A model generated the notes under the pieces. The model was not told the DNA's origin. It saw nothing but the letters and a program-made list of their open reading frames with translations, and did not search any database. A program made the translations under genes and the position numbers. Positions 46,166 through 62,326 of a DNA stretch of 64,000 bases are shown one piece after another; within the stretch, counting starts at the first letter, position 1, and every line of letters starts with the position of its first letter. Source of the stretch: Turneriella sp. (GTDB taxonomy: Bacteria > Spirochaetota > Leptospiria > Turneriellales > Turneriellaceae); NCBI GenBank assembly GCA_965279515.1, contig CBDIID010000003.1:1920001-1984000 (forward strand). The letters are read 5' to 3'.

Positions 46166-47224
46166 CTAATCATTGCGGCCAAAATCGATTACATAGGATA
46201 AGGAAAACCCCATACGGTACAACAGGTTTTGCTGTGGTTCATTCAAATACCTTAGGAAGGGCACCTGAAAAAAACAGGAAATTGCAAGCCCCGAAGGCCA
46301 CGCCACAATCATGCCGGGTGACACAAATGCCACAGTACCACCCGTATTCGTAATTGTCGTACCCGAAGATTCGGCGCGCGCCTGGTGGCGCATCGCAAAT
46401 TCAGCGAACAGAGAAAAGTTCGCCTCGTCGCGGCCTCCCCAGCGCTTTTGCAACGAGACGCCCCAGTCAAGACTGTCTCCGATCTTATAATTTTGTGACT
46501 CCGAACGCCGCGTAAACAATACCGAGGAGGATAGTGAGACCCCCTCCGCTATCCATCGCGAATATGCAGCAGCTCCTGAATAATCCCAGGCACCACTGCC
46601 CGGTGTGAGCGATGGTTCGTAGGAGTATTTCTGCGCCAGGGGGTCGCCACTCGCTGCACCCACAAGGTGAAACGAGGGATTTCTCGAATTAGACGCGTAG
46701 GTTGATAAGGGTTGCGATTCGTCGACGGCATAATATTTACCCAAGGGAGCCTTGACTGCAGCCAATACCGCAAAGCTGTGGGTTTCGTCTTTCAGCACAC
46801 GCCATTTCAGGCTAAAATCCGGATCAGCGATTCCGGCCACGGTGCCTAAGTCTAGTTGCCGGTATGTACCCCCTGAATCAATCAAGCCCTCGCGGATATT
46901 TTCTCCCCGGTAGTAACGAAACCTGAAACCGGCTTCAACACTGTCACGCAAACCATAGGCGATGGTTGTGACAGCCATGAGACTTTGGCGTATGGCGTCG
47001 ACATGGGTGCCCAAGCCCCCGGCTTTCTGTGTGAGTTCCTTGAGTTGTGCATCAGAAAAGCGCTCATAACTATTGCCTATGATAGCCTGCCCAAGAGCCA
47101 GAGTTCTTCTCTTCAATGTATTGGGTTCAATCAATGTTGCGCCGGCCCCGGTCGTCAAGGGGCCATGATCGGCACTGACGCTGCCCAATGAGATTGCGAA
47201 ACAGCAGATGTAAAAATATTTCAT
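46166..47224 (-). CDS. Outer-membrane beta-barrel transporter (MetA-pathway/phenol-degradation-like), paralog 1
   Basis: AGGAG RBS, signal peptide, GIAD...KAPLG...PGSGAWD pattern, alternating beta-strands; colinear with 50702-51793. Confidence 0.75.
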   Translation of the reverse strand: MKYFYICCFAISLGSVSADHGPLTTGAGATLIEPNTLKRRTLALGQAIIGNSYERFSDAQLKELTQKAGGLGTHVDAIRQSLMAVTTIAYGLRDSVEAGFRFRYYRGENIREGLIDSGGTYRQLDLGTVAGIADPDFSLKWRVLKDETHSFAVLAAVKAPLGKYYAVDESQPLSTYASNSRNPSFHLVGAASGDPLAQKYSYEPSLTPGSGAWDYSGAAAYSRWIAEGVSLSSSVLFTRRSESQNYKIGDSLDWGVSLQKRWGGRDEANFSLFAEFAMRHQARAESSGTTITNTGGTVAFVSPGMIVAWPSGLAISCFFQVPFLRYLNEPQQNLLYRMGFSLSYVIDFGRND

Positions 47225-47234
47225 GAAAAAACTC

Positions 47235-48488
47235 CTAAGGATTGTTGAAATGTCCTGCGGGCCAGGGGTTTGCATACGCCGGGTTATTGATAAACTTCGT
47301 ATCGGTGAGCGACTTCAGAAATTCAATGAGGTCAGCGCGTTCTTGCGTGGTAAGGGAAAATCCCTTGACGAAAGAATTTTTCAAGGGAGAAAGTTTTCCA
47401 TCTCCTGCATTAGGTCCCGAAGCAATCAACCTGCCCCCGCGGGCGTAATGATCAATGACGCCGTCGAGATCTGTGACCGAACCATCATGCATGTAAGGTG
47501 CGGTGAGTTCGACATTGCGAAGTGTGGGCGCCTTAAAACGCCCCATATCCGCCGCATTTCCCGTTACGTCCTTAATTCCCTGGCTGGCCGTGGGATACGC
47601 ACCGGTACCGCCCAGATTATAGAGACCATTATTCGCAAAATCTATTTCGGCAAAAGATTTGCGCGAGTGATCCTCGCTGTTCGTAAAATTGATACCTGTG
47701 TGGCAATGAAAACATTCGAGATTTTCGCTGTTAAAGAGATTCAACCCGTTTTTCGCTGATGCGCTAAGAGCTGCAGAGTCGCCCCGGTTATAGCGGTCAA
47801 AAGGAGAATCAAAGCCGATGATGGAGCGTTGAAAGACTTCGAGTGCGCGGGTTATATTCCCCATGGAAAACGGATCGCCCGTATCCGGAAATGCAGTGCG
47901 GAAAAGTTTTTGATAAATTGAATCTGCCCGCATTTCAGCGAGCCGGACATTTTCAAAGCCAGTCATGCCAAGTTCGACCGGATTCTCCCCGAAAATCGGT
48001 ACCTGCGCCTGAATATTCAGTCTTTTCATCAGCGGGTTTTCCCACGTAACGACCGGCTGCCACGCAATGTTGACAATATGCATACTGTTGCGCGGATGAA
48101 AATCCCCGGTCGAACCTTTCGCAGTGAGAATACGATCTGTTCCCGATTTTGAAAAATCAGCGCTGCCATCGTTGACATTCATGTCATCGGCAAATGCATT
48201 CGCCTGGTGATGGCAGGTGGCGCAGGCAAACGTCTTGTTACCGGAGAGCCGTTTGTCATAGAAAAGATGGCGTCCAAGTTCAACCTTTTCGTACGTCATC
48301 GGATTATCCGCCAGGACCCGCGGCGGTGGAATATTCGCGGGAATTTGCCAAACGTAATCTCCCGAGGGCGTTATCAGCTTCGGGGTGAAATTCTCGCACC
48401 CCACAGCCACAAGCAGCCCACCGCACGCGCCGAGCGCGCGTACGGAGACCGCTTGTTTTAAGGCGGTTAAAAAGCCGGAAACAATCAT
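47235..48488 (-). CDS. MbnH-type di-heme enzyme (bCcP/MauG superfamily), paralog 1
   Basis: LGRHLFYD.RLS, CATCH, CFHCH and FKAPTLRN...APYMHDG; adjacent to an MbnP gene. Confidence 0.88.
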   Translation of the reverse strand: MIVSGFLTALKQAVSVRALGACGGLLVAVGCENFTPKLITPSGDYVWQIPANIPPPRVLADNPMTYEKVELGRHLFYDKRLSGNKTFACATCHHQANAFADDMNVNDGSADFSKSGTDRILTAKGSTGDFHPRNSMHIVNIAWQPVVTWENPLMKRLNIQAQVPIFGENPVELGMTGFENVRLAEMRADSIYQKLFRTAFPDTGDPFSMGNITRALEVFQRSIIGFDSPFDRYNRGDSAALSASAKNGLNLFNSENLECFHCHTGINFTNSEDHSRKSFAEIDFANNGLYNLGGTGAYPTASQGIKDVTGNAADMGRFKAPTLRNVELTAPYMHDGSVTDLDGVIDHYARGGRLIASGPNAGDGKLSPLKNSFVKGFSLTTQERADLIEFLKSLTDTKFINNPAYANPWPAGHFNNP

Positions 48489-49459
48489 TCGACGCGGAAA
48501 AAAGACTGGGTCGAACTCTGTGTCACCTGACCACCGCTTACCGCCGCATACGATGTTCCGTTTGTCGCATCCCGTGCTGCATTTGTTGTACCTGTATAAC
48601 TATAGGCGAGTCCAAGGCGAGGCATGACAAAACGGCATTCCGGATCGCCGGTTCCCGACATACATCCGGCAGGTGCTCCCTGGTCCGCAGTGTTCAGGTT
48701 CAGATCGCGCACGACTTCTTTAAGGTCGGCGATAATGCGCAGCGAAGAAAGTGACGACAAACCGTTTTGGTAGGCTTCGGGAATATTCAGAGTCACCTCG
48801 GGGCGATTCGGTGTGGTACAGGTTACCTGATCCTGCGTTGCCCCTGTTTGTGTGCAGCTTAAGCTACCAATATGAACATTGAAAGCCGAAGCGTCATATC
48901 CGCCACCGCCTGAGGTCAGAAAGTCGAGCCGGGCTGCTTTGCGTCCACTCGTCCACGACCAGTAAAGAGCCGCAACATTGAGAGGGGCTGGAGCATTGTT
49001 CACGTCAAGATGATTCAAGCTGGATGGAATCCCGAGCGTGAATTTAATCTTCGAGTACTTATCGCCTGCCGTCACCGCAACAGTCCCCTTAACCTGGGAA
49101 TTTGTTGCGCTCGTAGGGCCGGTAGTCGCTGCGCAACCGCCCGTACCATTCTCAAAATCGAGGAGTGTAACGTTTTGGTACTGCCAGGTATTGTCTGCTG
49201 TCAAAGAAACGGTGACCTCACTGCCGTCCGATTTCACCAGTTTTACGTCATGAATATAGAAACGAAAATCGCGCGCAGCAAGCTGGGTCGACCCGGTACC
49301 AACACCGGAATAAGTCGTACCGCAGGCAAAATCTGCCGAACCGACTTTGGCTTGAAAATTCAGGACTAAATCCGTGGTATTCGCATCGATCTGGGTTTTT
49401 ACGCATCCCGCGGTAAAAAACATACCGCAAAGCATGGTTATGATTATTTTGTTTTTCAT
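48485..49459 (-). CDS. MbnP-family copper-binding lipoprotein, paralog 1
   Basis: Lipobox, DFRFYIHDV, WQYQNVTLLDFE, F.LGIP..LNH, WSW, HIGS..C and CMS...DPEC. Confidence 0.85.
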   Translation of the reverse strand: MKNKIIITMLCGMFFTAGCVKTQIDANTTDLVLNFQAKVGSADFACGTTYSGVGTGSTQLAARDFRFYIHDVKLVKSDGSEVTVSLTADNTWQYQNVTLLDFENGTGGCAATTGPTSATNSQVKGTVAVTAGDKYSKIKFTLGIPSSLNHLDVNNAPAPLNVAALYWSWTSGRKAARLDFLTSGGGGYDASAFNVHIGSLSCTQTGATQDQVTCTTPNRPEVTLNIPEAYQNGLSSLSSLRIIADLKEVVRDLNLNTADQGAPAGCMSGTGDPECRFVMPRLGLAYSYTGTTNAARDATNGTSYAAVSGGQVTQSSTQSFFRVE

Positions 49460-49483
49460 TTTTTTCTCCTTGTAAATTTTGGG

Positions 49484-50131
49484 TTAAAAAGTCATGGCAA
49501 CGCTCAGAAGGGGTTGCACGCTTAAGGCACTCGCCGAATAATCCGTACTTGCCCCGCCGCCGCTGGCCGCCTGGCTGACGGTCCAAAAAAAATACGAGAA
49601 ATTCACCGCGCCACCGACAAAGATATGGGTGGCGATTTCATAATCGTATCCCACCCGCAAAGCGGCGAGCGGACTGACTGCTGTGTACGTGGTCGCCGTT
49701 GCCCCCGAAATCTTGAGCAGGTTTATGCTCGCGCCGAGACCGAGACCCACGTAGAGATTTTTTACTGGAAAATACCGCGCATACGCTGCGACAGGCACCT
49801 GGGTAAGCTGGGTCGTATTCGTCGCAGAACCGATCGTAGCATTATTCTTGTAGGTAACCTGGTATCCGCCGGATATCCCCAATTGAGAGCTACTGTTACC
49901 GTACCACAGGGTTACGCCAAACGCCGGCGAAAGCACGGCACCGTTATCGGAGCCATAGACCGTCTCAACCGCAGAAGCGTATGAGCTTTTTGTGGCGTAA
50001 TTGATACCGCCATAAACCTGACCGATAAGATTCGCAGAGCGCCAAAACTCGTGGGGTGCTGGCTTGGTTTCTGCGGACAGCGTTCCAAAACCGGCAAATA
50101 TTGAACATAGAAAAATAATTCGTAATTTCAT
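49484..50131 (-). CDS. Small outer-membrane beta-barrel protein
   Basis: GAGG RBS, signal peptide, ~8 amphipathic beta-strands, C-terminal Phe. Confidence 0.7.
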   Translation of the reverse strand: MKLRIIFLCSIFAGFGTLSAETKPAPHEFWRSANLIGQVYGGINYATKSSYASAVETVYGSDNGAVLSPAFGVTLWYGNSSSQLGISGGYQVTYKNNATIGSATNTTQLTQVPVAAYARYFPVKNLYVGLGLGASINLLKISGATATTYTAVSPLAALRVGYDYEIATHIFVGGAVNFSYFFWTVSQAASGGGASTDYSASALSVQPLLSVAMTF

Positions 50132-50249
50132 AAATTCCTCGTAATTAAAAATTTTTGATGATCGCGCACACCGGAAGTGAGCAAACAAAACGCCTGACCA
50201 CGCGACTCAATGGCGCGGGCTTTAAAGCGGAAATTGCTACTTGTGTGCG

Positions 50250-50639
50250 CTAAGCCCGGGGGGGCGGAGTTTCAATGTCGGCAAGGTATGAAATGTAAAG
50301 AGGAGAGCTGATTTGAATGGCGGAAACATGGTATTGCACCGCGGTTAATCCCACCTGATTGCCCGTGAATACCCAGCGCGCGAACGCTGGCAGCACAGAA
50401 TCGTCGGCTTCGTCGGCGCAGGGATGGTCGGCTTTCAGAATTTTCGCCTTTGCCATGGCCTTGTTCAGCCTGTTGCATCCGCAGGGGCAATCTTTGCCCT
50501 TTTGCACTTTCTGCTTTGTATGAACGCAGAGAAAATATTTCGGTTGCTGCGCCGTAGCAACTTCAAAAGCACCAGCGAGCTGAGCAATAAACAGCGTGAG
50601 GCCAAAGCCGTGCAAGATTTTACACCGGAACACGCGCAT
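50250..50639 (-). CDS. Cys-rich PPPR-ending leader protein A (candidate stalling uORF)
   Basis: Signal/TM, CVH...CPCGC...HPC, ends DIETPPPRA; paralog of the ORFs at 56745, 60174 and 61970. Start uncertain. Confidence 0.8.
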   Translation of the reverse strand: MRVFRCKILHGFGLTLFIAQLAGAFEVATAQQPKYFLCVHTKQKVQKGKDCPCGCNRLNKAMAKAKILKADHPCADEADDSVLPAFARWVFTGNQVGLTAVQYHVSAIQISSPLYISYLADIETPPPRA

Positions 50640-50701
50640 GCGTCCAGAATTGATGGCGAGACGCTCCGTCAAGAGATATAAAGATCTTTTATTTCACTTG
50701 T

Positions 50702-51793
50702 TTACCCTGCCTCGTTGTGGTTGTGGTGAGAGTAAAGGCTGAAATTCCATGAAACGCCGAAATTCAGCCTGCCCTCGACTTTCTGCTGCGGCTCGTTCAA
50801 CATCTGCAAAACCGGAAATTCTTTGGAGATAAAACAGCCGAGTTCGAGCGGCAGATTCAAACGCATACCCACAGTCCAGAACGTGATAAGACCCCCACTG
50901 TTAACAATTATCGCGTCATGGTCGCGGGACTTCATCATATAACGCGCGGTTAACTCGGTGAAGGTAAAGAGTTTCGTGCGATCGAGATCAAATGCCCTGA
51001 ACGAAAGCGCGACGCCGCCGTCGATGCGGTCTCCGATTTTATAGGTCTTGTAATAGCCGCGGTAGATATAACTGCCGCTCGCGGTCAGTGTGAAGACATT
51101 CGCAAATTGTTTACTGGCTGCAAGACCCGCCATAAAATCTACGCTCCCACTGCCGGGTGTCGCCGACGGATCGAGAGAAAACTGATCTGTTCCCCCGGCG
51201 CCCGAGACCACATGATAGCTCGGCTGCGGAATGTTGCCGCCCGCAACCTGCGCAGCGGGTAGAGAATTCAAGGCCACCGACTCGCTGGCGCCCGCGAGGT
51301 TGCCGGTGGGTAACTTGACCCCGCCCAACCCCGCGAGGGTCCAGCCTGCGCCGGAGAAAAATTTCACCTTGCCATTCAGCCAGAGGTCGGTGAGACCCGC
51401 GACATTTCCCGCGTCGATGAGCTTGTAGGCAGTATTCGAATCAAGCACGCCCTCGCGTAAGCGGTGCCCGTAATACCACCCGATCGTCGCCGATGCGTCG
51501 AGCCATGAGAGAATGCCATAACCCAAAGTCACGTTCGAGATCGACCCCAGGCCCAGCGTGTCGATATGCGATCCCGCCGTCTTCATCTTCTGTGTCGCGT
51601 CTGAGATCGCCACGTCAGGGTATTCTGCGTACGAAGTAAAACTCTGCATAATGGAGAGCGAGAAATGATGGCGCTCAATCGTATCGGGCATGATCACGCT
51701 GCCGGTGGCCCCCGTCGTTCCGGGCCCATGGTCGGCGTGTACGAAACTTTGCAGCAGGGATAGAAACAAAAAAACGGAGAGAATATTTTTCAT
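50702..51793 (-). CDS. Outer-membrane beta-barrel transporter, paralog 2, with His-rich tail
   Basis: Signal peptide then DHGP; GLTD...KLPTG...PGSGSVD; ends SHHNHNEAG. Confidence 0.75.
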   Translation of the reverse strand: MKNILSVFLFLSLLQSFVHADHGPGTTGATGSVIMPDTIERHHFSLSIMQSFTSYAEYPDVAISDATQKMKTAGSHIDTLGLGSISNVTLGYGILSWLDASATIGWYYGHRLREGVLDSNTAYKLIDAGNVAGLTDLWLNGKVKFFSGAGWTLAGLGGVKLPTGNLAGASESVALNSLPAAQVAGGNIPQPSYHVVSGAGGTDQFSLDPSATPGSGSVDFMAGLAASKQFANVFTLTASGSYIYRGYYKTYKIGDRIDGGVALSFRAFDLDRTKLFTFTELTARYMMKSRDHDAIIVNSGGLITFWTVGMRLNLPLELGCFISKEFPVLQMLNEPQQKVEGRLNFGVSWNFSLYSHHNHNEAG

Positions 51794-51815
51794 ATAATTT
51801 CCTTGAAATAAAACA

Positions 51816-52988
51816 TTATGGATTGTTCGATGACCCCTTCGGCCAGGGGTTCGAGAATTTGGGATTCGTCACAAATTCCGTATCGGTGAGGCTACGCAGA
51901 AATTCTATCAGGTCGCTTTTGTCGCCAGCAGTAAAACTGCCACTAAAGTTCTTTACCAGCGGATTCTTGCGCGTGTTGAGAGCCCCGTCGCCATCGAAAC
52001 CGGCGCCTTTACCGGTTACATTGCGGCCGCCGCGCTTATAATGCTCGATCACATTATCGAGAGTATCGATCGAACCGTCGTGCATATACGGCGCCGTGAG
52101 TTCGATATTTCTGAGCGTCGGTGCCTTAAAGCTGCCGTTATCAGCGACATTGCCCGTCACGAGGTTGAGGCCGCTGTTGCCGCTCGGGAAGACATTGGCG
52201 TTGCCAACGTTATAGATCCCATTGTTCAGAAACTGGATGTCGGCCGCTACCTTGCTGTAATAGTCTTCGGCGCTCGAAAAGGTAATACCCGCATGGCAGT
52301 GAAAACAATCCGCGGTTTCACCAAAAAAGAGGTTCATACCACGCTTTGCCGCTGCGCTCATCGCCGTCTTATCGGTGCCCGTGATATACTTGTCGTATGG
52401 AGATTTGCCGCTGATCAGCGTACGCTGAAAGGCCTCGAGCGCATCGCGTATGTGAGCGACAGAAATCGTCGGGGCATCCTTGGCAAAGGCGGCATTAAAG
52501 AGACCAACGTATTTGTCATCGGCCGCAAGCCGCGTCACGACTGTAGCTTCCATACCCGCAAGCCCCAGCTCGACCGGCGTCGTACCAAAGAGCGGCACAT
52601 TTGCCTGTACATTGAGCCGTGTCTGCAATGAATTCGCCCAGGTCAGCACCGGCTGGTACGCGAGGTTAATCAGCGACATCGAGTTGCGCGGATGCGCCTC
52701 ACCTGTCGAGCCGATGCCCACGGTGAGGCCGTCTGAGAACGCCTTGTTCTGGTGGTGGCAGCCTGCACAGGCCTGCGTCTGGTTACCTGACAGGCGTTTG
52801 TCGTAGAAAAGATGGCGACCCAGATCGACCTTCTCGTTGGTCATCGGGTTATTTTCAAATTCGCGTGGCCGTGGGAAACCGGGGGGGAGATCCCACTTAA
52901 ATGCGCTGGGCTCCTGGATGTATTTGAAATCCAGGTTCTGGCAGCCGACGGCCACGAGGGCCAGAGCGAAACTCAATACCGTACGCAT
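51816..52988 (-). CDS. MbnH-type di-heme enzyme, paralog 2
   Basis: Lipobox, CAGCH, CFHCH and FKAPTLRNIELTAPYMHDG. Confidence 0.88.
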   Translation of the reverse strand: MRTVLSFALALVAVGCQNLDFKYIQEPSAFKWDLPPGFPRPREFENNPMTNEKVDLGRHLFYDKRLSGNQTQACAGCHHQNKAFSDGLTVGIGSTGEAHPRNSMSLINLAYQPVLTWANSLQTRLNVQANVPLFGTTPVELGLAGMEATVVTRLAADDKYVGLFNAAFAKDAPTISVAHIRDALEAFQRTLISGKSPYDKYITGTDKTAMSAAAKRGMNLFFGETADCFHCHAGITFSSAEDYYSKVAADIQFLNNGIYNVGNANVFPSGNSGLNLVTGNVADNGSFKAPTLRNIELTAPYMHDGSIDTLDNVIEHYKRGGRNVTGKGAGFDGDGALNTRKNPLVKNFSGSFTAGDKSDLIEFLRSLTDTEFVTNPKFSNPWPKGSSNNP

Positions 52989-53972
52989 CTATTCTACCCT
53001 GAAGAAGACCTGGCCCGAGGTAGGGTAAACAGTGGGAGATCCCGCACTGCTCGCAGTTAAGCCGCGCGCGGTGGATGACCCCGTATAAGAGAAGTCGACA
53101 CCCCAGTTGTTGAGTACGGCCTTACACTCGGGATCGCTGCGGTCAGAGTGACAGCCCGGCTGCGTGCCCCCGGTATTCGCGATCGAGAAATCCGTGTCTT
53201 TATAGAGCTCTTTCGCGTCGGCGACCACTGTCTGCCCGTAAGTGAAGTTCAATTCTATTGCCGGCCGGTTCGATGTGTCGCAGACAATGTCGGGCGGCGA
53301 CGCGAAGGTATCACAATCGATACTGCCCAAATGCGTGAAAAACGGATTGTACGTGTTTACGTTGAACTCCACGACCGCATGTTTGTAGCCGGTCGTCCAG
53401 CTCCAGAACATATACGTCACGTTGAGCGGCGCATTGGTGTTGCCGACGCCATTCTGATTGAGGTTCTGCGGTACGCCGAGCTTGAAGCGTAGCTTCGTAA
53501 ACGTGAGCGCCTCGCTCGCGGCGATGGTGCCACGCACCGTGGTATTCGTACCGGCATTACCCTGTGCAGCGCACTGCGTACTAGCGGCGGCATTCTCAAA
53601 ATCGAGCAGCGCGAGGTTCTGGTACTGGTAGGCGGCATCTTGAGTGAGGGTGACGGCGACTTCGCTGCCATTGGCCCTCACGAAACGCACGTCGTGCACA
53701 AAGAAGCGGAAATCTTTGGGCACGAGCGTCGCTCCGCCGCCAGCGCCGACACCGGAATAACTGGCCGTCGAACAATCGAAGACCTGCGTCCCGACCTTGG
53801 CAGCAAACTGTATCGTCACATTTTGCTGGGGTACGGAGCTGCCCGAACCCGAGCCCGCCGAAGACCCCGCTTCGGCTTTCTTTTTTTCTTCATCAATCGC
53901 CTGCAATATTTTATTGTCTGCGCATGCACTCAGCGAAAGAAAAAGTGCGGCGAAAAATAGATATATTTTCAT
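52989..53972 (-). CDS. MbnP-family copper-binding lipoprotein, paralog 2
   Basis: LSAC lipobox, DFRFFVHDV, LALLDFE, MFWSWTTGYKH, HLGS..C and CHS...DPEC. Confidence 0.85.
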   Translation of the reverse strand: MKIYLFFAALFLSLSACADNKILQAIDEEKKKAEAGSSAGSGSGSSVPQQNVTIQFAAKVGTQVFDCSTASYSGVGAGGGATLVPKDFRFFVHDVRFVRANGSEVAVTLTQDAAYQYQNLALLDFENAAASTQCAAQGNAGTNTTVRGTIAASEALTFTKLRFKLGVPQNLNQNGVGNTNAPLNVTYMFWSWTTGYKHAVVEFNVNTYNPFFTHLGSIDCDTFASPPDIVCDTSNRPAIELNFTYGQTVVADAKELYKDTDFSIANTGGTQPGCHSDRSDPECKAVLNNWGVDFSYTGSSTARGLTASSAGSPTVYPTSGQVFFRVE

Positions 53973-53980
53973 ATCATCTC

Positions 53981-55030
53981 CTAATCCAATCGGAATTCTT
54001 TTCTTTTCAGAAAATTTTCGTCGGTAAGGGTCAGTAAAAACTCTTTGAGGTCGGCTTTATCCTGCGTCGAAAAATGAAATCCGCCTGCCGGTAGTTTGGC
54101 ATCGAGTGTCGCAGACCGCTGAATACCCGATGAATAATGTTCGATCACGGCCTCAAGCGTCGCAAAACGCCCGTCGTGCATGTAGGGCTTTGTCACGGCA
54201 ATGTTGCGCAATGTGGGAGTGCGGAATTTGCCGATGTCTTCGTTCTTGCGGGTGATACGAAACCGGCCCATGAGCTGACCTTCGTGGTCGGGGGGATATT
54301 TGGTATCGAGACCGTTGTTGTGATAACCATTATCGGTCAACAGCGGGCCGTTATGACACACGGCGCATTTGCCGGTATACAGATTGCGCCCCCGTGCTTG
54401 TGCGTCGTTGAGCATGCCCTCTTGTCTCAGCACACGATCATAGAGCGAATCGAAAGAAACGAGGGTTCGCACGAATTGCGCCAGCGCCTGCAGCATGTTT
54501 GTGATAGACACCTGCTGGTCGGGAAACGCCTTTTCAAATGCGCGGCGGTAAGCACCGTCAGCCCTGAGCTTATCGAGCGAAACGCCGATCGGTTGTCCCA
54601 TTTCATCTGCGTTATGCAATGGTCCAATCAGCTGCGACTCAATATTTTTAGCACCGCCATCCCAGAATAAGCCGTTGTTCGACCAGGCGAGGTTAATGAG
54701 AGCCGGAGAGTTGCGCGTCGCCGGTTTGCCCGACACGCCGCTCTTCGCCAATGCGACGCCATCGCTGAACGCCAGCGATTGATCGTGACAGGTCGCGCAG
54801 CTGACTTTGTCATTGGCAGAAAGCCTTGGCTCATAAAACAGCCTGCGCCCGAGCGCGATAATTTCCTTTCGGAATCTATTGGTATCAGGCTCGGGCAACG
54901 GCCCCAGAAAGCGCAGTGTTTTGGGATGTGCATATTCGTGCACGGCAAGCACCGGATTTTCAGACCGGCAAGCGATCACGAACAGCGCACCCCAAAGCGC
55001 GGCAAGCCGCGCTTTGTTGGTCACGCGCAT
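53981..55030 (-). CDS. Di-heme cytochrome c peroxidase-like protein (MbnH-like), third and divergent copy
   Basis: LGRRLFYE.RLS, CATCH, FWDG, CAVCH and FRTPTLRN...PYMHDGR. Confidence 0.88.
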   Translation of the reverse strand: MRVTNKARLAALWGALFVIACRSENPVLAVHEYAHPKTLRFLGPLPEPDTNRFRKEIIALGRRLFYEPRLSANDKVSCATCHDQSLAFSDGVALAKSGVSGKPATRNSPALINLAWSNNGLFWDGGAKNIESQLIGPLHNADEMGQPIGVSLDKLRADGAYRRAFEKAFPDQQVSITNMLQALAQFVRTLVSFDSLYDRVLRQEGMLNDAQARGRNLYTGKCAVCHNGPLLTDNGYHNNGLDTKYPPDHEGQLMGRFRITRKNEDIGKFRTPTLRNIAVTKPYMHDGRFATLEAVIEHYSSGIQRSATLDAKLPAGGFHFSTQDKADLKEFLLTLTDENFLKRKEFRLD

Positions 55031-55032
55031 GA

Positions 55033-56634
55033 TTACGGTACGCTGGCCGAGGTTACCGAGAACACGTTGTTCTGGTAAGCGTTAGCCAAATTACCCATGA
55101 GCGCCGAATTGGTCGATGCATTGATGTACTTAGGCGACCCGGAAACTGTCGAGGTATTCACACCCGCACCACCATTAACCTGGAACAGTTTCGCCACGTT
55201 TGCCCGAACGTTAATCACCGCATTCTTGCCTTTGGTTAGCGTTATGCTCGCAGGAAAAGTTAAGGCTGTCAGGCTGCGATAATTTGCGTTTGCGCCGATA
55301 TCGAAGCCAAAATTGACAGAACCGCAACTCACGCACTGCCCGGTAATTTGTGAAAACAGGTAACTACTATTCCACATCCAGGTATACGTTGCCATATCAC
55401 GGTGAATATGCAGCTCTCCTGCTTGCAGGCTTAGGTTGTTGTTATAGGTCGAGTCTACACCAACCGAAAACTGGATGGCTGTGTAAGTCCCTGATGGCAC
55501 ATCGGCAATCGAAATTTGCTCACGGTTGGCCGCCGCAATCGTCATACCGCTATTGATGTTGCCTGGGCTAATCGCACTGTTTGTTGTCATCAGATAGTAA
55601 CTACCCGGCACGGAGTATTGCGTTGTGTCCGCTTTGGTAAGTTTAACGTTGCTTATCCAATAGCGAAAACGCGTAAAACGCAACGTGTTACTGTGATCAT
55701 CGGTATACGTCGTATTCAGCGCAAAGGTGGTGCCGTTAAAATCCTTGGCGACGTTAATTGTCGCAGTGCCGACATCGGCTTCAGAAACCGCCGTGGTAGT
55801 GGCGCTTACAAGGCTTACCGCAGAAGCAAAGTTTGCGGCTACGGTACTCATCTGGCCGGCATTATTGAAGCCGTTGATAGCACGCTTTGTAACACCCGTA
55901 TCGACGCTAACTGTGCCAATATCGATACCCGCGAACAATTTTTCTACGTCAATCTTTGCGACAATCGTTGGGGCAGAGGTCGCACTGACAGTGATATTCG
56001 TGGGAAAGCTCAGTGTTTTAGTCTGATAATTTGCATTCGTACCAAATTCGAGCGCAAAAGCCTGCTGCCCTGAGCAGCTTGTGCAGGTTCCCGAAGTTTT
56101 GCCAAAAATGTAGCTGGTAACCCACGACCACTCGATGTTGCCCATATGAGAAAAGAGGTGAAGTTCCCCTGTTCTCAAGCTCAGATCGTTATTATACGTT
56201 GAATCGACGCCTACGCTGAATTTAATCCCTTTATAGCTTCCGACAGGGACTTTTTTCAGGGTCACATTTTCCCTATTTCCCGCCGCCAGATTAAAGTTAG
56301 GCACGCGTTCGCCAGTCGTATCGCCCGTGACAGCATTATTCTGCGAAAGCAGGTAATACGCGTCCGGCACCGCAACTTCGGAATTGTCGTCCTTGATGAA
56401 TTTAACGTTCGATACCCAATAACGAACCTCGTTGATGGTGATTGTGTTTCCCGCTGCTGTCGTATACGATGTGCCGAGAGCAAAAGCCGCCCCATTGAAA
56501 TACTTCGGCATTTGCAGCGAAACCTCGCCCGTTTCGCTGGCAGATGCAGCGGTGGTACCAGATTCCTCTGAATTTTTTGCGCAGGCACCCAATAGCGCGC
56601 TGCAAAGTAAGATAAGATAAAATTTCGATTTCAT
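55033..56634 (-). CDS. Lipoprotein with two tandem MbnP-like domains
   Basis: GGAGG RBS, LGAC lipobox; internal duplication with RYW(V/I)SNVK, YYL, FSVGVDSTYN, WxW and CxxC in each half. Confidence 0.8.
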   Translation of the reverse strand: MKSKFYLILLCSALLGACAKNSEESGTTAASASETGEVSLQMPKYFNGAAFALGTSYTTAAGNTITINEVRYWVSNVKFIKDDNSEVAVPDAYYLLSQNNAVTGDTTGERVPNFNLAAGNRENVTLKKVPVGSYKGIKFSVGVDSTYNNDLSLRTGELHLFSHMGNIEWSWVTSYIFGKTSGTCTSCSGQQAFALEFGTNANYQTKTLSFPTNITVSATSAPTIVAKIDVEKLFAGIDIGTVSVDTGVTKRAINGFNNAGQMSTVAANFASAVSLVSATTTAVSEADVGTATINVAKDFNGTTFALNTTYTDDHSNTLRFTRFRYWISNVKLTKADTTQYSVPGSYYLMTTNSAISPGNINSGMTIAAANREQISIADVPSGTYTAIQFSVGVDSTYNNNLSLQAGELHIHRDMATYTWMWNSSYLFSQITGQCVSCGSVNFGFDIGANANYRSLTALTFPASITLTKGKNAVINVRANVAKLFQVNGGAGVNTSTVSGSPKYINASTNSALMGNLANAYQNNVFSVTSASVP

Positions 56635-56744
56635 ATTTCCTCCAAATTCCAAAATCTGCCGTAAACTTACGGCGCGCACACGGCTCGCCTTAGCTGACCG
56701 CGCGCAAATAGCCTGAGATTTTGCTCAGGGTATGTTATGTGAAT

Positions 56745-57137
56745 TTAGAGCGCCCGGGGGGGCGGAGTTTCAATGTCGGCGAGATAGGATTTATAGAGAG
56801 GAGAACTGATTTGAATTAGCGAAATACGATACTGCACCGCGGTTAATGCCACTTCATTGCCCGTGAACACCCAGCGCGCGAAAGCTGGCAGCACAGAATC
56901 TTCGGCCTCATCGGCGCAAATACGGTCAGATTTCAGAATTTTCGCTTTTGCCATTGCTTTTTTTAACTTACTGCAACCGCAGGGGCAAGCTTTGTGCTTT
57001 TCAATTTTTTGTTTGGTATGAACGCAGAGATAATATTTGGGTTGCTGCGCGTGGATTACCTCAAAGGCACCGCTGATTTGCGCGAAAAACAACACCAAAC
57101 CGAAGCCGTGAAGAACTTTGTAGCGCTTTAGCCCCAC
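56745..57137 (-). CDS. Cys-rich PPPR-ending leader protein B (candidate stalling uORF)
   Basis: Closely similar to leader A in protein and DNA; ends DIETPPPRAL. GTG start at 57137 inferred by alignment. Confidence 0.8.
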   Translation of the reverse strand: MGLKRYKVLHGFGLVLFFAQISGAFEVIHAQQPKYYLCVHTKQKIEKHKACPCGCSKLKKAMAKAKILKSDRICADEAEDSVLPAFARWVFTGNEVALTAVQYRISLIQISSPLYKSYLADIETPPPRAL

Positions 57138-57197
57138 AGCTGAAACCCCGCCCAAACAAGTGCCCGGTCAACCATTTTTCAAGATGAGTCGCGAGTC

Positions 57198-57234
57198 AAA
57201 AAATCCGGACACATTGTTTGCACAATGTGTCCGG
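57198..57234 (-). terminator. Rho-independent terminator after the cytochrome pair
   Basis: Perfect 13-bp stem CCGGACACATTGT-TTGC-ACAATGTGTCCGG followed on the minus strand by ATTTTTT. Confidence 0.8.
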
Positions 57235-57258: not shown

Positions 57259-58605
57259 TTATTTCACAGAGAGAATGTAAGCCGCAAGCGCCTCGAAATC
57301 CTTCGCCTGCAACTGGTCTTCGAAACCCGGCATCTGTGGATAGCCTGGCCTTTTTTTGCCCGGCTTGCGTATCCACTGCATGAGTTGGGCTTCTTTACCC
57401 TTGTAAATCGAGACCATTTCGACCACGGGTGGGCCCACGAGCTTGGTCTTGATCTGGTGGCAGCCGACGCAATAGTTGTCGAAAAGCTTTTGCCCCTCGC
57501 CCACGAGAGGATTCTCTTTCGCCGGCCCGGCCTCGGGTTTCTTCTGCGCCGCGACTGCCGCATTAGCCTCGGCCACAAGCTTCTCGTATTCAGCCGTGCG
57601 TTCGGCGACGAGTTTCTTGTGTGGCCCCAAAGCGGTCTCGCGAATCACATGACGCCCCGACACCATGAGGATAACCACGATAGTCAGCGCAATCACGATC
57701 TTCGAAAAACGGCTGCCGATGGCCTCGGCAGGGCCAGAAACCGACTTCCACATCCAGACGAGCGTGAGAATGCCGACGACGACGGCAGGCGCCAGAATGG
57801 CGAGCAACGCCCAACTGATTGCCTTAGAAGGCAAGGTCAAGAGCACCAGCGGTCCCGCGACAAACTGCAGCAGCGTCGCCATGAAGGCGAGCGAGAGCAT
57901 GCGCTTGCGAATCTCATAGCGCGACAGATTGACAAACTTCTCTGCGTGCGGATATCCCTCGCGGCCAAAATACCAGAACAGAAAAAGTCCGGTCACTGTC
58001 AGCGAGGCTAACACGAAGTGAAAATAACGCGGGAAAACATTCGGCAATGCAAGCGCCGAGAAGAATCCCGAGACACTGCCCCATTTTTCCGGGTAGAGCA
58101 TCAGGTTGATGTTCGTCAGAAAAATCAACGGTATCGTCAGAAAGATCGCCGATGCAGCGCCGATCATCGCGATATGCAGCCCCTTGTTATCCTTGAGGAT
58201 ATCCCACAGATACTTGTGCGGGTACGTGAGTAAAAAACCCACCGTCACGAGCGGCACAATCGCAATCCAAAAGAGTCCCGTCAGCGCATTCGCCGAATAA
58301 AAATACACCGTGTAGAGCGTATTGATGAGCAACAGCGGAGCTACCCCCATCACGACGGCGAGACTCTTGTTGACGGTGATCGTCTTGGCAATCTCATGCG
58401 CAAGCTGGTCATAGTCTTTCTCTTTAAGACCCTTGAGCTGTGCGAAAAATGTCAACAGTGTTCCGCCCAGCATCAGGTTCACGAAAAGAATATGCACCAG
58501 AAACGAGAAGACCAACAGACCGACTGCGAGCCACTCGGGTAGCGGCAAGGGTAGCGGAATGTCTTTTGGCACCGGCACCGCGGCGAGAAATAGCGCGAAA
58601 TTCAT
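57259..58605 (-). CDS. Multi-TM membrane protein with C-terminal c-type cytochrome (cytochrome bd-related partner subunit)
   Basis: About 9 TMs, HILFVN and RYFHF; C-terminal CVGCH...MP heme c domain; coupled to the upstream gene. Confidence 0.75.
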   Translation of the reverse strand: MNFALFLAAVPVPKDIPLPLPLPEWLAVGLLVFSFLVHILFVNLMLGGTLLTFFAQLKGLKEKDYDQLAHEIAKTITVNKSLAVVMGVAPLLLINTLYTVYFYSANALTGLFWIAIVPLVTVGFLLTYPHKYLWDILKDNKGLHIAMIGAASAIFLTIPLIFLTNINLMLYPEKWGSVSGFFSALALPNVFPRYFHFVLASLTVTGLFLFWYFGREGYPHAEKFVNLSRYEIRKRMLSLAFMATLLQFVAGPLVLLTLPSKAISWALLAILAPAVVVGILTLVWMWKSVSGPAEAIGSRFSKIVIALTIVVILMVSGRHVIRETALGPHKKLVAERTAEYEKLVAEANAAVAAQKKPEAGPAKENPLVGEGQKLFDNYCVGCHQIKTKLVGPPVVEMVSIYKGKEAQLMQWIRKPGKKRPGYPQMPGFEDQLQAKDFEALAAYILSVK

Positions 58606-60002
58606 TTGCGCACCTCTGCCTCTGGCAGCCGCACACCGACTTCCTGTGCACCCTCGGCATTATCGGGATATTTTGCTGCGGCGAGAATGTAACTCGCGAG
58701 CGCACCCAACTCGGCCTCATTGCCAGGAAAAGGCGGCATGAAGTAGCGCGACTTATGCATGTTGCGCATATAGCCGACCATGGCATCTGCATTGAAATTA
58801 TCTTTACCCAAAAGGTTCTCAAACTTTTTCACCACAGAGTTGATGCCGCCCGAAGTGTGGCAGCGGCTGCATGCAAGCATAAAGATGTCTTTGCCCGATT
58901 CTACAGCATTTGCAGATGTAACCTCGCGGTACTTCACATAGGTCGCATGCTTCAAGATGCCGTCACGGTTTAAGAGCGCCATCTCTTTCGGCCGCACCAT
59001 GTTCGAATACATGTAATCGGCGATCACATAGGGTTTGCGAATGAATTCACGCGTACGCTCGAAGGTGACCATCAGCGTAATCGCCAGCCCTATCGGTAAC
59101 ACAAGAGCCAAGGCCGGTATACGCCAGCGGCCAATGATGCCCAGCACAGCGACAAAACCGATGACGCCTGCGGCGACTGCCATGATAACGAGCAGATTGT
59201 CATACCATGACGAGAACTCCATCGTGCCGATCGCGACCGACATGTTCTGCCGCATCATATCGGGTATGACCCAATAATAATAGATCGAACCGATGATGAG
59301 AAATGGCGTCCACGCGAGTACCCACGAACCCGTAAGACGTACGGCAGATCGTCTGAGCGCGTCATTATTCCGCACAAAAAACGGAATCAGGGCAAAAACG
59401 ACAGATCCGCCCATGACCATCGCGAGCGGAGTACGAAACGCCAGCTGCGCAGGGTAAACGGGATTCAGAAACCCCTTAATCAGCGACTGGTCGGTACGCC
59501 AGCTGCCCGGGTCCATCATGAAACTCAATATCGCGACAATGATCGCCATGGTGACCCAAGAGGCGATCGAAAGCGCGATGCCGAAGCGAATGTGTTTCCA
59601 TTTTTTCTCTGGTGAAGCATTTGATCTGCGCCAGCTGAGAAAATAAATCAGAATGAGGATGACTTCGGTGACGAAGACAATCCACTCCACGAACCAGGCG
59701 GCGAAAAAGACCCGTATCAGGCTGCCAATCGATGCAGGGCTGACAAGGCTCGCCGAGAGCCAGATGCCGACGCCGGTCATGGCGCCGAGCGATGTGGTGA
59801 TGATGAATGCGAAGAACATGACCTTGCGGGCCAGTTCATCCCATTCTTTGCTGTTATTCTTGTACCCGACGTATTCGAGATACGTCACATACGGTATGAG
59901 GCCCACCGCCAAAGCGTGGTTAATCACCACGTGCAGAATCGCAATGATCGCGATTAAAATGCGGTTGCCCATAAAATCCAAATGAAATATGGGAAAGTCC
60001 AT
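58602..60002 (-). CDS. Cytochrome bd subunit I-like membrane protein fused to cytochrome c
   Basis: ILHVVINH, GAMTGVGIW, WFVEW.VFVTE, ILSFMMDPGSW and RE.IRKPY resemble CydA TM motifs; C-terminal CSRCH...MPPF; no evident Q-loop. Confidence 0.72.
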   Translation of the reverse strand: MDFPIFHLDFMGNRILIAIIAILHVVINHALAVGLIPYVTYLEYVGYKNNSKEWDELARKVMFFAFIITTSLGAMTGVGIWLSASLVSPASIGSLIRVFFAAWFVEWIVFVTEVILILIYFLSWRRSNASPEKKWKHIRFGIALSIASWVTMAIIVAILSFMMDPGSWRTDQSLIKGFLNPVYPAQLAFRTPLAMVMGGSVVFALIPFFVRNNDALRRSAVRLTGSWVLAWTPFLIIGSIYYYWVIPDMMRQNMSVAIGTMEFSSWYDNLLVIMAVAAGVIGFVAVLGIIGRWRIPALALVLPIGLAITLMVTFERTREFIRKPYVIADYMYSNMVRPKEMALLNRDGILKHATYVKYREVTSANAVESGKDIFMLACSRCHTSGGINSVVKKFENLLGKDNFNADAMVGYMRNMHKSRYFMPPFPGNEAELGALASYILAAAKYPDNAEGAQEVGVRLPEAEVRK

Positions 60003-60173
60003 AGTTTGAACTCCTTATAGTTAATAATGTATAGGTTAAGCCGCGCGCAATAATCGGTGTTTATATGCTGCGCCATCAGGTACAGCGACGTCACCGGCGC
60101 GAATCACGGCAGTGAGAGGGCATACCTGTGGCTGCGTGCGATTCAGGCTGATTCAATGCGCGGCAGGCGGCGC

Positions 60174-60575
60174 TTAGGCCGCAGCAGATCGGGGTGGAGG
60201 CGGAGTTACTTCAGCGATAATACTATGATAAAATGGATCAATACTGGGGACAACCACAGTGAAATAACGGGGAGTCGGCACCGAAAACGGTAAGTATATG
60301 CCGCCGAAGCGATCAAAATTCGGCATGTGAGCAATATCGTCATCGGGGCTGGCACAGACATCGTCGGCGTCGACGAGCACCGCGATTTTTTTGGGTGACT
60401 TATGCTTGTGCCCGCACGGACAGGGATTTCCCTTCTGTACGCGCACCTTCATGTGGGGACACATATAATATGTTTTCACCTGTAGATTCGAAACGAGGTC
60501 GGGCACAGCCGACAATTGCAATGTAAAAAGAAAAAGACCACAAAGATGAATCGGCGTGAGAAAGCGGATCAGCAA
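60174..60575 (-). CDS. Cys/His-rich PPPR-ending leader protein C (candidate stalling uORF)
   Basis: Signal/TM, CPH...CPCGHKH...DVC, ends EVTPPPPRSAAA. Start uncertain (TTG at 60575 or 60641). Confidence 0.75.
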   Translation of the reverse strand: MLIRFLTPIHLCGLFLFTLQLSAVPDLVSNLQVKTYYMCPHMKVRVQKGNPCPCGHKHKSPKKIAVLVDADDVCASPDDDIAHMPNFDRFGGIYLPFSVPTPRYFTVVVPSIDPFYHSIIAEVTPPPPRSAAA

Positions 60576-60661
60576 GTTATGACCAAAGACTTTTTTCGTA
60601 CAACCGGTAAAGAAATTTCGCGAAGACTTTACGACGTTCAAAGCAAGAAGACTCTGACAAC

Positions 60662-61237
60662 ATGAAAATTGCCCTGCTACTTGTTTTCTCTACTCTGCCG
60701 CTCACCGCTCAAACAAACGCGGGGTTAAAACTCGGCGGCACGCTCATGAACGGCAAAGAGGGTACACGCGCGATCGTCGAGTTGGGTGACGGCAGAACCA
60801 CGCAGGTCTGCGAAGCGGGCAAAGCTTGCTCGAAAAATGCCTGCGACTGCGAGGTCGCCGGTTATAAAGTCGTGCATATCGAAGCGCGCAAGGTAACGCT
60901 GCGGCGCGGCGGCGAACGTTTCACGCTGACCCTCGATGGCCTGCGCCCCGAAGGACAAACAGGTAAATATGCGGGCACAATTACCCGGGACTTTTCCCGC
61001 GCAAAACTTCAGGAAACCCTGAATACTCGCGGCGAGAAGGCCACGGACGTGTTACACAAACTGCTCGCTGGCGCCGATGTCAGGCCGACAGACACCATCA
61101 AAACCGTGCAAGGACATCCCCTTGAAAGAGTAAAGTGGGGTACGGTGCACGGGAGCATTCAGGCCGCCGAACAGGTGGCCATTGAAATCGAGCGCGAAGG
61201 CAAGCTGATACTCTTACAGCTGCGCATGACGCAATAA
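60662..61237 (+). CDS. Exported hypothetical protein with Cys cluster; weak GspC/PDZ-like features
   Basis: Signal peptide; LGGTL...AIVE...GYKVVHIE..KVTL resembles the GspC HR domain; CEAGKACSKNACDC; C-terminal IEIEREGK. Confidence 0.6.
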   Translation: MKIALLLVFSTLPLTAQTNAGLKLGGTLMNGKEGTRAIVELGDGRTTQVCEAGKACSKNACDCEVAGYKVVHIEARKVTLRRGGERFTLTLDGLRPEGQTGKYAGTITRDFSRAKLQETLNTRGEKATDVLHKLLAGADVRPTDTIKTVQGHPLERVKWGTVHGSIQAAEQVAIEIEREGKLILLQLRMTQ

Positions 61238-61248
61238 AAGCCAAGAAC

Positions 61249-61875
61249 TCAGCCGGGACAGACCGGGCTCAGCTTAGCGGTAATTTTCACATCGATATCG
61301 GGCCACAGCTTGCTTTGGCCGTCTTTACCCTTATGCAGGTCTTTGCAGGCCAGGTTCAAGGCCGCGAGCGGTGAAAGGGCGTTGAATTCAGCGATATCAA
61401 GCCTAAAGGCGACTTCGAGCCCTGCACCGTCGACGCGGCGCACCGTAGCCGAGACCTTTTTCTCGATGCCGTTGATTTTCAGGAGCAGGGTGGCGTTGTT
61501 TGCGCTCACCGATTCGACGCGTGCCCTGATCTCCCCCTTATTTTTCATCGCTGCGAAAAACGCGTAATAAATCTTCTTATCGCGGTCGGGATTATTCGTA
61601 TTCACGCTCGCGGCATCGACGATGAATTCGGCTTCTGCAAAGACCTCTTCGGGTTTCGTGGCGGTGCGCGCATTTTCAGTTCGAATCGAATTAAAAGTTC
61701 CCGAAACACCGAGGCGCTCTGTAAACTTGTATGCAGTCCATTGCAGCTTTGCCTGCGTGGGGTCGAAATCAAAGCGGCAGAGGCTGTAATCCGGTTTTAT
61801 TTCTGCTTTCTTGCAAGACCAGAAGAGTGCCAAGATAAGTACAATGCCAACAATGTGACTCTTTCGCAAAATCAT
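61249..61875 (-). CDS. YceI-family lipoprotein
   Basis: WSC lipobox; WTAYK...VSGTF and SVNTNNPDRD motifs. Confidence 0.8.
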   Translation of the reverse strand: MILRKSHIVGIVLILALFWSCKKAEIKPDYSLCRFDFDPTQAKLQWTAYKFTERLGVSGTFNSIRTENARTATKPEEVFAEAEFIVDAASVNTNNPDRDKKIYYAFFAAMKNKGEIRARVESVSANNATLLLKINGIEKKVSATVRRVDGAGLEVAFRLDIAEFNALSPLAALNLACKDLHKGKDGQSKLWPDIDVKITAKLSPVCPG

Positions 61876-61969
61876 AGTTGGGAAAAGCCTCTGCGATACC
61901 GCGCGTAAAGCCGGTTTTCACAACAGCGGTTTACGCTGTATCCATAAGATAGATTTGCTGCGGAGCGCC

Positions 61970-62326
61970 GTGCTGAGAAAGATTACCGCCACGCTGATTT
62001 GCCTCTTGCTTCTTGCAACTGCCACCGAGGCGGTCGGACTTATCTCACACTCGACCGGCGTACTCAAATGCCCCAGCTGCAAAATGAAAATGCAGAAAAT
62101 CGACGACTGCCGCTGCCATAAGAAAAAACCTGTTTCCGCGGCGAAAATCCACGACCCCTGCGGCGACAACGAGGGGGATTTCCACATTTCCTTCGACCGG
62201 GTGCAGGGTGTTGCGGCGCCCGAAGTCTTTGTGCCGGCCGCTTTTGTCAGTACATACCTCTCTCTCTCTTATCGCTACCCCACCGGTATCACGAGCGATA
62301 TTCCGCAGCCGCCGCCGCGGCGTTAA
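61970..62326 (+). CDS. Cys-rich PPPR-ending leader protein D (candidate stalling uORF)
   Basis: GGAG + GTG start, signal peptide, CPSC...CRCH...HDPC, ends DIPQPPPRR; directly upstream of the TonB-dependent receptor. Confidence 0.8.
   Translation: MLRKITATLICLLLLATATEAVGLISHSTGVLKCPSCKMKMQKIDDCRCHKKKPVSAAKIHDPCGDNEGDFHISFDRVQGVAAPEVFVPAAFVSTYLSLSYRYPTGITSDIPQPPPRR

Follow-up and report, generated by a model that had tools for sequence, protein, structure and literature searches.

Gene layout of the locus

The DNA analysed here is a stretch of 64,000 nucleotides (nt) from Turneriella sp. (assembly GCA_965279515.1, contig CBDIID010000003.1, positions 1,920,001 to 1,984,000), called the window below and numbered from its first letter. 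On its minus strand it carries two coupled genes, the open reading frames (ORFs) A and B, behind a short upstream frame named leader C. The elements of this unit are the following.

60174-60575 (-): leader C, CutF/CruR-like, 133 amino acids, likelier start TTG at 60575
60461, 60422, 60416, 60356 (-): Cys codons of leader C
60189-60200 (-): PPPP codons of leader C
60003-60173 (-): intergenic region between leader C and ORF A, 171 nt
60009-60014 (-): Shine-Dalgarno (SD) sequence GGAGUU of ORF A
60202-60207 (-): anti-SD AACUCC, within the V-T-P codons of leader C
58602-60002 (-): ORF A, OR-C1a-type subunit, 466 amino acids
57259-58605 (-): ORF B, OR-C1b-type subunit, 448 amino acids
57205-57234 (-): terminator-like hairpin 3' of ORF B, 13 pairs plus T-run, from a consensus scan

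A first-pass annotation, made from the letters alone, had described two coupled multi-transmembrane genes, each with a C-terminal CxxCH, placed behind leader C. This description is borne out: both ORFs are present at these coordinates and joined by an ATGA overlap (58602-58605), 8 hydrophobic segments are found in A and 8 in B, and the open frame of leader C (60174-60641) ends in TPPPPRSAAA. The hairpin at 57205-57234 is terminator-like and would close a unit made of leader C, A and B. The same annotation had the pair induced together with uptake genes. Co-transcription with them is not supported, given the hairpin 3' of B and the placement of mbnP under a leader of its own.

Fold and conserved residues of A and B

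Pfam and NCBIfam scans recognised in A and B no more than the cytochrome c domain at each C-terminus (the Pfam matches being over cut-off in both) and left the membrane domains nameless. The CxxCH motif and distal Met are C378/C381/H382/M422 in A and C379/C382/H383/M425 in B. The C-terminus of A is a monohaem cytochrome c, and in B a long helix leads to a C-terminal monohaem cytochrome c. By sequence, residues 13-224 of A match Geobacillus CydA (5doq_A) with an E-value of 1.6e-8. The model of A (predicted local distance difference test score, pLDDT, 84) retrieved only CydA chains among its top 10 Foldseek hits. In the VIA comparison its best CydA alignment reached Z 25.7 (root-mean-square deviation 3.2, 304 residues aligned), and CydA chains (Z 23-26) ranked above subunits of alternative complex III (ACIII; Z 16-17). 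Foldseek also placed CydA chains first for the B model (pLDDT 87), more weakly than for A (E 5.6e-4). HHalign of A against B gave 96.9%, and 99.7% with deeper alignments. A and B are paralogues, and B is a second CydA-fold subunit, neither CydB nor a plain cytochrome c. The likeness to CydA on which the first-pass annotation depended is thus present in both models. Its term "bd-like/cytochrome c pair" is right about the bd-superfamily identity of A and wrong in treating B as a plain cytochrome c.

Individual residues were compared by aligning A and B against 20 canonical Bacteroidota CydA sequences. Equivalents refer to residues of E. coli CydA, whose roles are in part those given in the bd-superfamily preprint cited below and, for E445, R448, H186 and M393, general background. 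H186 and M393 are ligands of b558 in subunit I. A has H24 (equivalent to haem ligand H19), E106 and E113 with six residues between them, H137, E319 (E445) and R322 (R448), and all of these are invariant in 87/87 close A sequences. The position of the b558 ligand H186 is F189 in A, and the Q-loop region with the quinol site (K252/E257), sought by alignment to canonical CydA, falls in a gap. The earlier remark on CydA-like motifs without an evident Q-loop agrees with this result.

B has H38 (H19) and H196 (H186) and is without the proton-channel glutamates. H196 co-varies with M314 (75 H/M and 9 E/Y in 84 close sequences), and B may accordingly hold a b haem with His/Met ligation. E and Y jointly replace the two residues in B of loci L016, L020, L022, L031, L036, L063, L068, L071 and L085, which suggests that this subset may have lost one b haem and kept the c haem.

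No Cys outside CxxCH occurs in the A or B sequences, so there is no CuA site. H7, D9 and H29 of A are invariant in 87/87 close sequences and mostly different in 15 distant ones. The label "heme-only" is insecure in view of H7 and H29, invariant residues without a known role. These residues also bear on a different function for the pair, that of a redox helper of copper acquisition: a membrane haem wire reducing Cu(II) or its chelates or serving MbnH/SCO, and perhaps binding a metal itself at H7, D9 and H29. This explanation is rather unlikely. The invariance of the three residues among close relatives speaks for it, whereas the proton-channel glutamates and the two haem ligands of the active site, all retained in A, favour proton-consuming O2/NO chemistry, and the lack of Cys besides CxxCH also counts against it.

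The closest named relatives are from Turneriella sp. (83%) and Leptospira (62-70%), followed by many from Bacteroidota. Among about 8000 candidates scored, 1712 homologues of A and 1501 of B were found, the named ones mostly labelled "cytochrome c". A natural a-b fusion was suspected and found no confirmation in the 5 loci checked.

Placement in the cytochrome bd superfamily

The pair fits the OR-C1a/OR-C1b family, a branch of the cytochrome bd superfamily that genome data served to define in 2021 (Murali, Gennis, Hemp; bioRxiv 10.1101/2021.01.16.426971). OR-C1a and OR-C1b are described there with 8 transmembrane segments each, no quinol site, haem c motifs and cytochrome c as the proposed donor, without biochemistry; a leader, a copper context and activity are unmentioned in the main text.

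The pair shares with this family two adjacent CydA paralogues of 8 transmembrane segments, CydA homology of the first four helices, H19 in both subunits, the glutamate pair with its six-residue spacing in the a subunit only, C-terminal CxxCH, and the lack of a quinol site. It differs in having one haem c per subunit and the order a then b, whereas the more distant OR-C1 loci retrieved often have the order b-a, with no haem c in b and as many as 8 CxxCH in a. In other spirochaetes, distant OR-C1a proteins (L127, L128, L130, L131, L133, L134) have 6-8 CxxCH and no leader, and their genes, where visible, stand behind a haem-less b subunit.

Canonical cytochrome bd (CydAB; 5doq, 6rko) resembles the pair in fold (Z 25.7) and in the equivalents of H19, E99/E107, E445 and R448. 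It differs in that here the Q-loop is absent, A is without the b558 His, a CydA paralogue takes the place of CydB, and cytochrome c is fused. The marks of a quinol-oxidising bd (qOR), namely a Q-loop, H186/M393 in subunit I and a CydB partner, were not found. Neither were those of OR-N (10 or 14 transmembrane segments, no fused haem c), the pair having 8 with fused CxxCH. A bd-superfamily, cytochrome-c-linked identity is supported by the alignments and predicted structures, and A and B likely form one OR-C1a/OR-C1b enzyme.

Leader C and its family

Leader C has a hydrophobic N-terminus (hydropathy 1.9 over 13 residues), a possible signal peptide. Three paralogues of it lie in the window and a further one 46 kb past it, and its family is present in 13/13 other genomes of the genus. 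Family members share the hydrophobic N-terminus, CPC, one further Cys and a terminal proline run. The last Cys stands 47-52 residues from the proline run in most of them (51 in leader C), a spacing long enough to span the ribosome tunnel. Pfam and NCBIfam scans at E 0.1 gave no match for leader C, DUF2946 included, and no family for any leader. Two paralogues flank the unit.

56745-57155 (-): leader B, heading a double-MbnP gene (55033-56679) and MbnH-like genes
61955-62326 (+): leader D, heading a TonB-dependent receptor gene (from 62395)

The receptor behind leader D scored 320 bits against a profile built from receptors beside Bacteroidota OR-C1 loci and belongs to the same group. Three tandem MbnP/MbnH-like pairs, one MbnP having a duplicated domain, lie at 46166-56679 (-) with beta-barrel-like genes between them, under leaders A (50250-50672) and B. 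The fifth leader (contig 2030304-2030675 (-), L091) ends in PPPRRS and is followed by a gene for a small His/Cys-rich secreted protein of 105 amino acids with no Pfam match. The 22 genes scanned downstream of the leader family comprise 6 MbnP, 2 TonB receptors, 6 thioredoxin-like and 8 unnamed genes. A branch of leaders ending in DPPD heads thioredoxin-like (TlpA/ResA-type) genes in the genus (L103, L104, L105, L107, L111, L122).

Two six-base pairings had been proposed, one between the V-T-P codons and the SD, the other between the H-S codons (60222-60227) and the start codon (60000-60005). Both complementarities are present as written. The SD pairing is part of the minimum-energy fold (pair probabilities 0.58-0.76), and the start-codon pairing was rejected at a probability of about 0.003. 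At least two such matches arose in 20% of 2000 dinucleotide shuffles, and the six-base matches were rejected as evidence in themselves. The intergenic region 60003-60173 is predicted to fold back and place the leader proline codons next to the SD. Folding or alignment of five Leptospira loci shows the SD region largely engaged with the end of the leader (unpaired 0.05-0.15 in the 4 folded), the anti-SD lying at the leader stop or the RAPP codons. An SD stem is plausible on these predicted folds. The C>G-rich stretch (maximum C-G 0.22, reached by 3% of 2414 ORF ends, with a contribution from proline codons) would also permit control through Rho.

By the operational rule of PMC9973294, leader C counts as CutF-like: it has 133 amino acids (<150), PPPP (PP in the last 15 residues) and 171 nt (<1000) to a gene on the same strand. 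CutF-like proteins are mostly from Pseudomonadota and Bacteroidota, with few in Spirochaetota (PMC9973294). In CutF, copper turns cutO on by melting an SD stem (PMC9973294; bioRxiv 10.1101/2025.02.05.636593). In CruR, copper turns uptake genes off through release of a RAPP stall and Rho (PMC9426467), and the arrest has been shown (PMC12992588). In both, a stalled ribosome means that the downstream genes are on, and the metal state that stalls it is not readable from sequence alone.

Leader C resembles CutF of the CutF-cutO system (Rhodobacter capsulatus) as a small, putatively exported Cys-bearing upstream ORF with a C-terminal proline run and a predicted SD-hiding stem. It differs in lacking CxxxC, in its unrelated sequence and in its target, a bd-superfamily oxidase instead of a multicopper oxidase. 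With CruR (DUF2946, Bordetella pertussis) it shares a position before copper-uptake genes (TonB receptors, SCO, PepSY_TM, MbnPH), a fixed Cys-to-arrest spacing (45 in CruR, 50-52 here), a long intergenic region and a C-rich 3' end. It differs from CruR in having PPPPR rather than RAPP, no CxxC and no DUF2946 match, whereas the Leptospira leaders preceding the same pair have RAPP as in CruR.

If the polarity were that of CutF, copper excess would stall the ribosome, melt the SD stem and induce the pair as a copper-resistant oxidase or periplasmic copper detoxifier. The proline run other than RAPP, the putative export signal and the predicted SD-hiding stem are all CutF features. Still, this polarity is quite improbable: no efflux or multicopper-oxidase gene was seen among the 22 downstream genes, the named ones being uptake-type or thioredoxin-like, and the C>G-rich stretch (top 3% of ORF ends) and long intergenic region are CruR-like. 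The control by leader C probably runs opposite to that by CutF.

Neighbourhood of the pair in other genomes

From 581 matching stretches the best 80 were scored together with 6 further close loci (4 Leptospira-like, 1 from Bacteroidota, 1 from the same genus; L181 was left out as a duplicate of L042), 86 in all. B accompanies A in 85/86. A rule-defined leader stands directly upstream of the pair in 14/86 loci and upstream of an intervening AraC gene in 10/86, while AraC alone is found in 13/86; the rule missed L088 and L059, where leaders are visible by eye. SCO, MbnP/MbnH or PepSY_TM within about 8 kb, taken as copper markers, occur in 35/86 loci. SCO is the commonest copper neighbour (29/86) and directly follows the pair in Leptospira L008. 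PepSY_TM, MbnP/MbnH and TonB receptors recur, and SCO, leader, AraC, A and B form a recurrent block in this order. SCO and these other neighbours would also suit the redox helper of copper acquisition introduced above.

In canonical cydA control loci there were no direct leaders, no leaders via AraC and no markers (0/20 for each). In the host genome, rule-defined leaders precede 19/2205 long ORFs, and markers occur in 2% of random 17.4-kb windows. Fisher tests gave p 1e-4 and 0.006, values that make the contrast look stronger than it is because kin among the loci are not independent. The copper link proposed at the outset is thus backed by neighbourhoods in other phyla, and by the oxidase inventory given below.

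These counts also bear on another explanation, in which A and B form an enzyme for high affinity or for stress (low O2, NO, peroxide, sulfide or cyanide), the leader responds to a non-copper signal (another metal, disulfide state, export capacity) and the copper island is incidental. It is unlikely, since copper markers are found in 35/86 loci in two phyla against 0/20 controls and the closest paralogues of leader C head MbnP.

All five Leptospira-type loci have a leader unrelated to leader C, ending in RAPP, plus SCO in the locus. HHalign of the Turneriella-type, Leptospira RAPP-type and Bacteroidota HPP-type leader profiles gave probabilities of at most 3.2%, while the two Bacteroidota leader types do align (88.9%). 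The pair thus appears to be preceded by three leader families without detectable homology to each other. In the Atlas, leader C resembles small secreted Bacteroidota proteins and CzcI-like proteins in its features, so a remote kinship of the leader families is conceivable. In Bacteroidota an AraC-type regulator stands between a leader ending in HPP or KPP and the pair at a number of loci (L016, L031, L036, L044, L060, L063, L068, L070, L071, L086), possibly as a leader-controlled activator of a copper-shortage regulon. The Cytophagales leaders (L023, L024, L026, L029, L030, L038, L047, L084) are kin of the Cys-rich Bacteroidota family with the Cys cluster missing.

A FastTree tree of A, without a clade test, places leaders and copper markers in the spirochaete, Cytophagales and Flavobacteriales/Chitinophagales/Sphingobacteriales clades and in one locus of the Ignavibacteria clade. 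They are absent from the Prolixibacteraceae, Planctomycetota and Acidobacteriota clades.

Oxidases of the host genome and distribution of the pair

Oxidases of the bd type need no copper, unlike haem-copper oxidases. The presence of the latter in the host genome had been raised as a point to check, and a PF00115 profile search found 3 genes: a caa3-type subunit I, a fused CcoN/O cbb3, and NorB beside NorC (cNOR). Searches with PF01654 and PF02322 gave no match in this 99.99% complete genome, in agreement with the earlier statement that canonical cydB is missing. The pair is present in single copy and is the sole bd-superfamily candidate found. Since caa3 and cbb3 are the only other O2 reductases found, both recognised ones are copper enzymes fed by cytochrome c. 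An NrfD-family (ACIII-like) gene and cytochrome c assembly genes are also present. PF01654 was likewise unmatched in 5/5 other OR-C1-bearing spirochaete genomes.

The distribution of the pair is patchy. It was matched in 4/41 genomes of a relatives sample (one a weak partial match), in only 1/13 other genomes of the genus, in 13/401 genomes of the phylum and in 16/301 of the phylum of a Flavobacterium genome. Canonical CydA is co-resident in 47/79 genomes holding this subtype, and mutual exclusion with canonical bd was accordingly rejected. By our own tally canonical CydA is present for 17/35 loci with leader or copper context versus 30/44 other genomes. A haem-copper oxidase is found in 78/79 host genomes, as a redox helper would lead one to expect, but the background is 143/151 (a tally including one unpublished genome, G810), which makes the co-occurrence uninformative.

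Other genes around the locus

Divergent from leader C, across a gap of 87 nt, lies a weakly GspC-like gene (60662-61237 (+)), followed by a YceI lipoprotein gene (61249-61875 (-)). In the relative G003 the GspC-like and YceI genes also adjoin the pair, YceI on the opposite side. A denitrification cluster is found 12-22 kb past the window (contig 1995820-2006141), with a NirK-like copper protein fused to cytochrome c, an FGE-like gene, SCO, NnrS, a CopD-like gene and NorC/NorB.

Proposed function and its weighing

The favoured explanation, held at about an even chance, has A and B working as a copper-free cytochrome c:O2 oxidoreductase, made when the ribosome stalls on the leader under copper shortage. 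Its direct support is the fold, the conserved ligands, the missing Q-loop, the gene coupling, the leader anatomy and the neighbourhood. The pair is predicted to reduce O2 to water with electrons of periplasmic cytochrome c and without copper. Electrons would enter via the two c haems and reach the b/d-type site of A (His24/Glu319), with a b haem on His196/Met314 of B as the probable intermediate, and protons would arrive through Glu106/Glu113 of A. Leader C would be exported during its translation. Without copper the ribosome would pause at PPPPR and cover the anti-SD codons and the C-rich stretch, so that A and B are made; copper bound to Cys some 51 residues upstream would release the pause, after which the SD re-pairs or Rho terminates. 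The pair would keep the cytochrome c chain respiring when caa3 and cbb3 lack copper, while sister leaders would in parallel induce MbnP/MbnH and a TonB receptor for copper capture. MbnPH is described as acting in copper release and uptake (PMC13729199).

A comparable switch is known from M. tuberculosis, where copper deprivation induces cydAB (PMC12140626). The likeness lies in the pairing of copper capture with a haem-only oxidase. The difference is that M. tuberculosis has a canonical quinol bd and a transcriptional response, with a leader peptide undescribed in the part of PMC12140626 covered. As for the original proposal of a copper-free, cytochrome-c-linked oxidase induced with uptake genes in copper shortage, the identity and the copper link gained support and co-transcription with those genes did not.

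Several observations weigh against the copper-free oxidase under leader control. Neither leader nor AraC is found upstream in 49/86 close loci, and 51/86 have no copper marker. The marker profiles were built from the test loci, and these contain kin and are not independent. At the distant OR-C1 loci there was no upstream leader (0/15) and a single MbnH-like match (1/15), and a conserved Cys is missing from the leaders that immediately precede the pair in Cytophagales. With the footprint of a stalled ribosome masked, the SD became only modestly more accessible in the model (0.12-0.25 against 0.03-0.07), since it then pairs with the coding region instead. For the closest relative the pairing of 60202-60207 was not reproduced: one fold has the SD paired elsewhere in the leader, and a second has it hardly paired to the leader at all. 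Thioredoxin-like genes make up 6/22 of those behind the leader family, and CutF shows that a leader built in this way can serve to induce genes when copper is in excess (PMC9973294). The invariant H7, D9 and H29 of A might bind a metal. Canonical CydA in 47/79 genomes means that a copper-free oxidase is often already there, and the haem-copper oxidase count, not above background, says little. In a search of the literature since 2021 nothing on the OR-C1 family was found beyond bioRxiv 10.1101/2021.01.16.426971, nor any OR-C enzyme assay.

Implications

The enzyme family and the leader class were each known already; their repeated coupling did not turn up in the literature searched. No paper linking OR-C to copper or leader peptides was found in a search that covered neither the supplements of Murali et al. 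nor the neighbour data of PMC9973294, and the available portions of PMC13038864, PMC12914433 and PMC10839748 do not mention such a link. A broader proposal, tentative and somewhat short of even, is that the monohaem OR-C1 pair, as a copper-free cytochrome c oxidase, offers a third way of oxidising cytochrome c next to the A- and C-type haem-copper enzymes. At least three unrelated families of stalling leaders would then have come to stand before it independently, in Spirochaetota and Bacteroidota, and swap it in when copper runs out, a copper-sparing switch of respiration operated at the ribosome.

The bd superfamily comprises three families, and for OR-C among them no measured activity or physiological role was found in the literature. 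The leader and neighbourhood pattern points to one growth condition, copper limitation, and the pair is a compact two-gene enzyme with cultured hosts in Flavobacterium, Sphingobacterium, Arcicella and relatives of Leptospira. As A and B are annotated merely as "cytochrome c", genome surveys miss the oxidase and call such genomes bd-negative. If the proposal is true, bacteria would be able to couple cytochrome c oxidation to O2 with no need of copper, and arrest peptides that sense copper would govern the choice of terminal oxidase as well as copper transport and detoxification.

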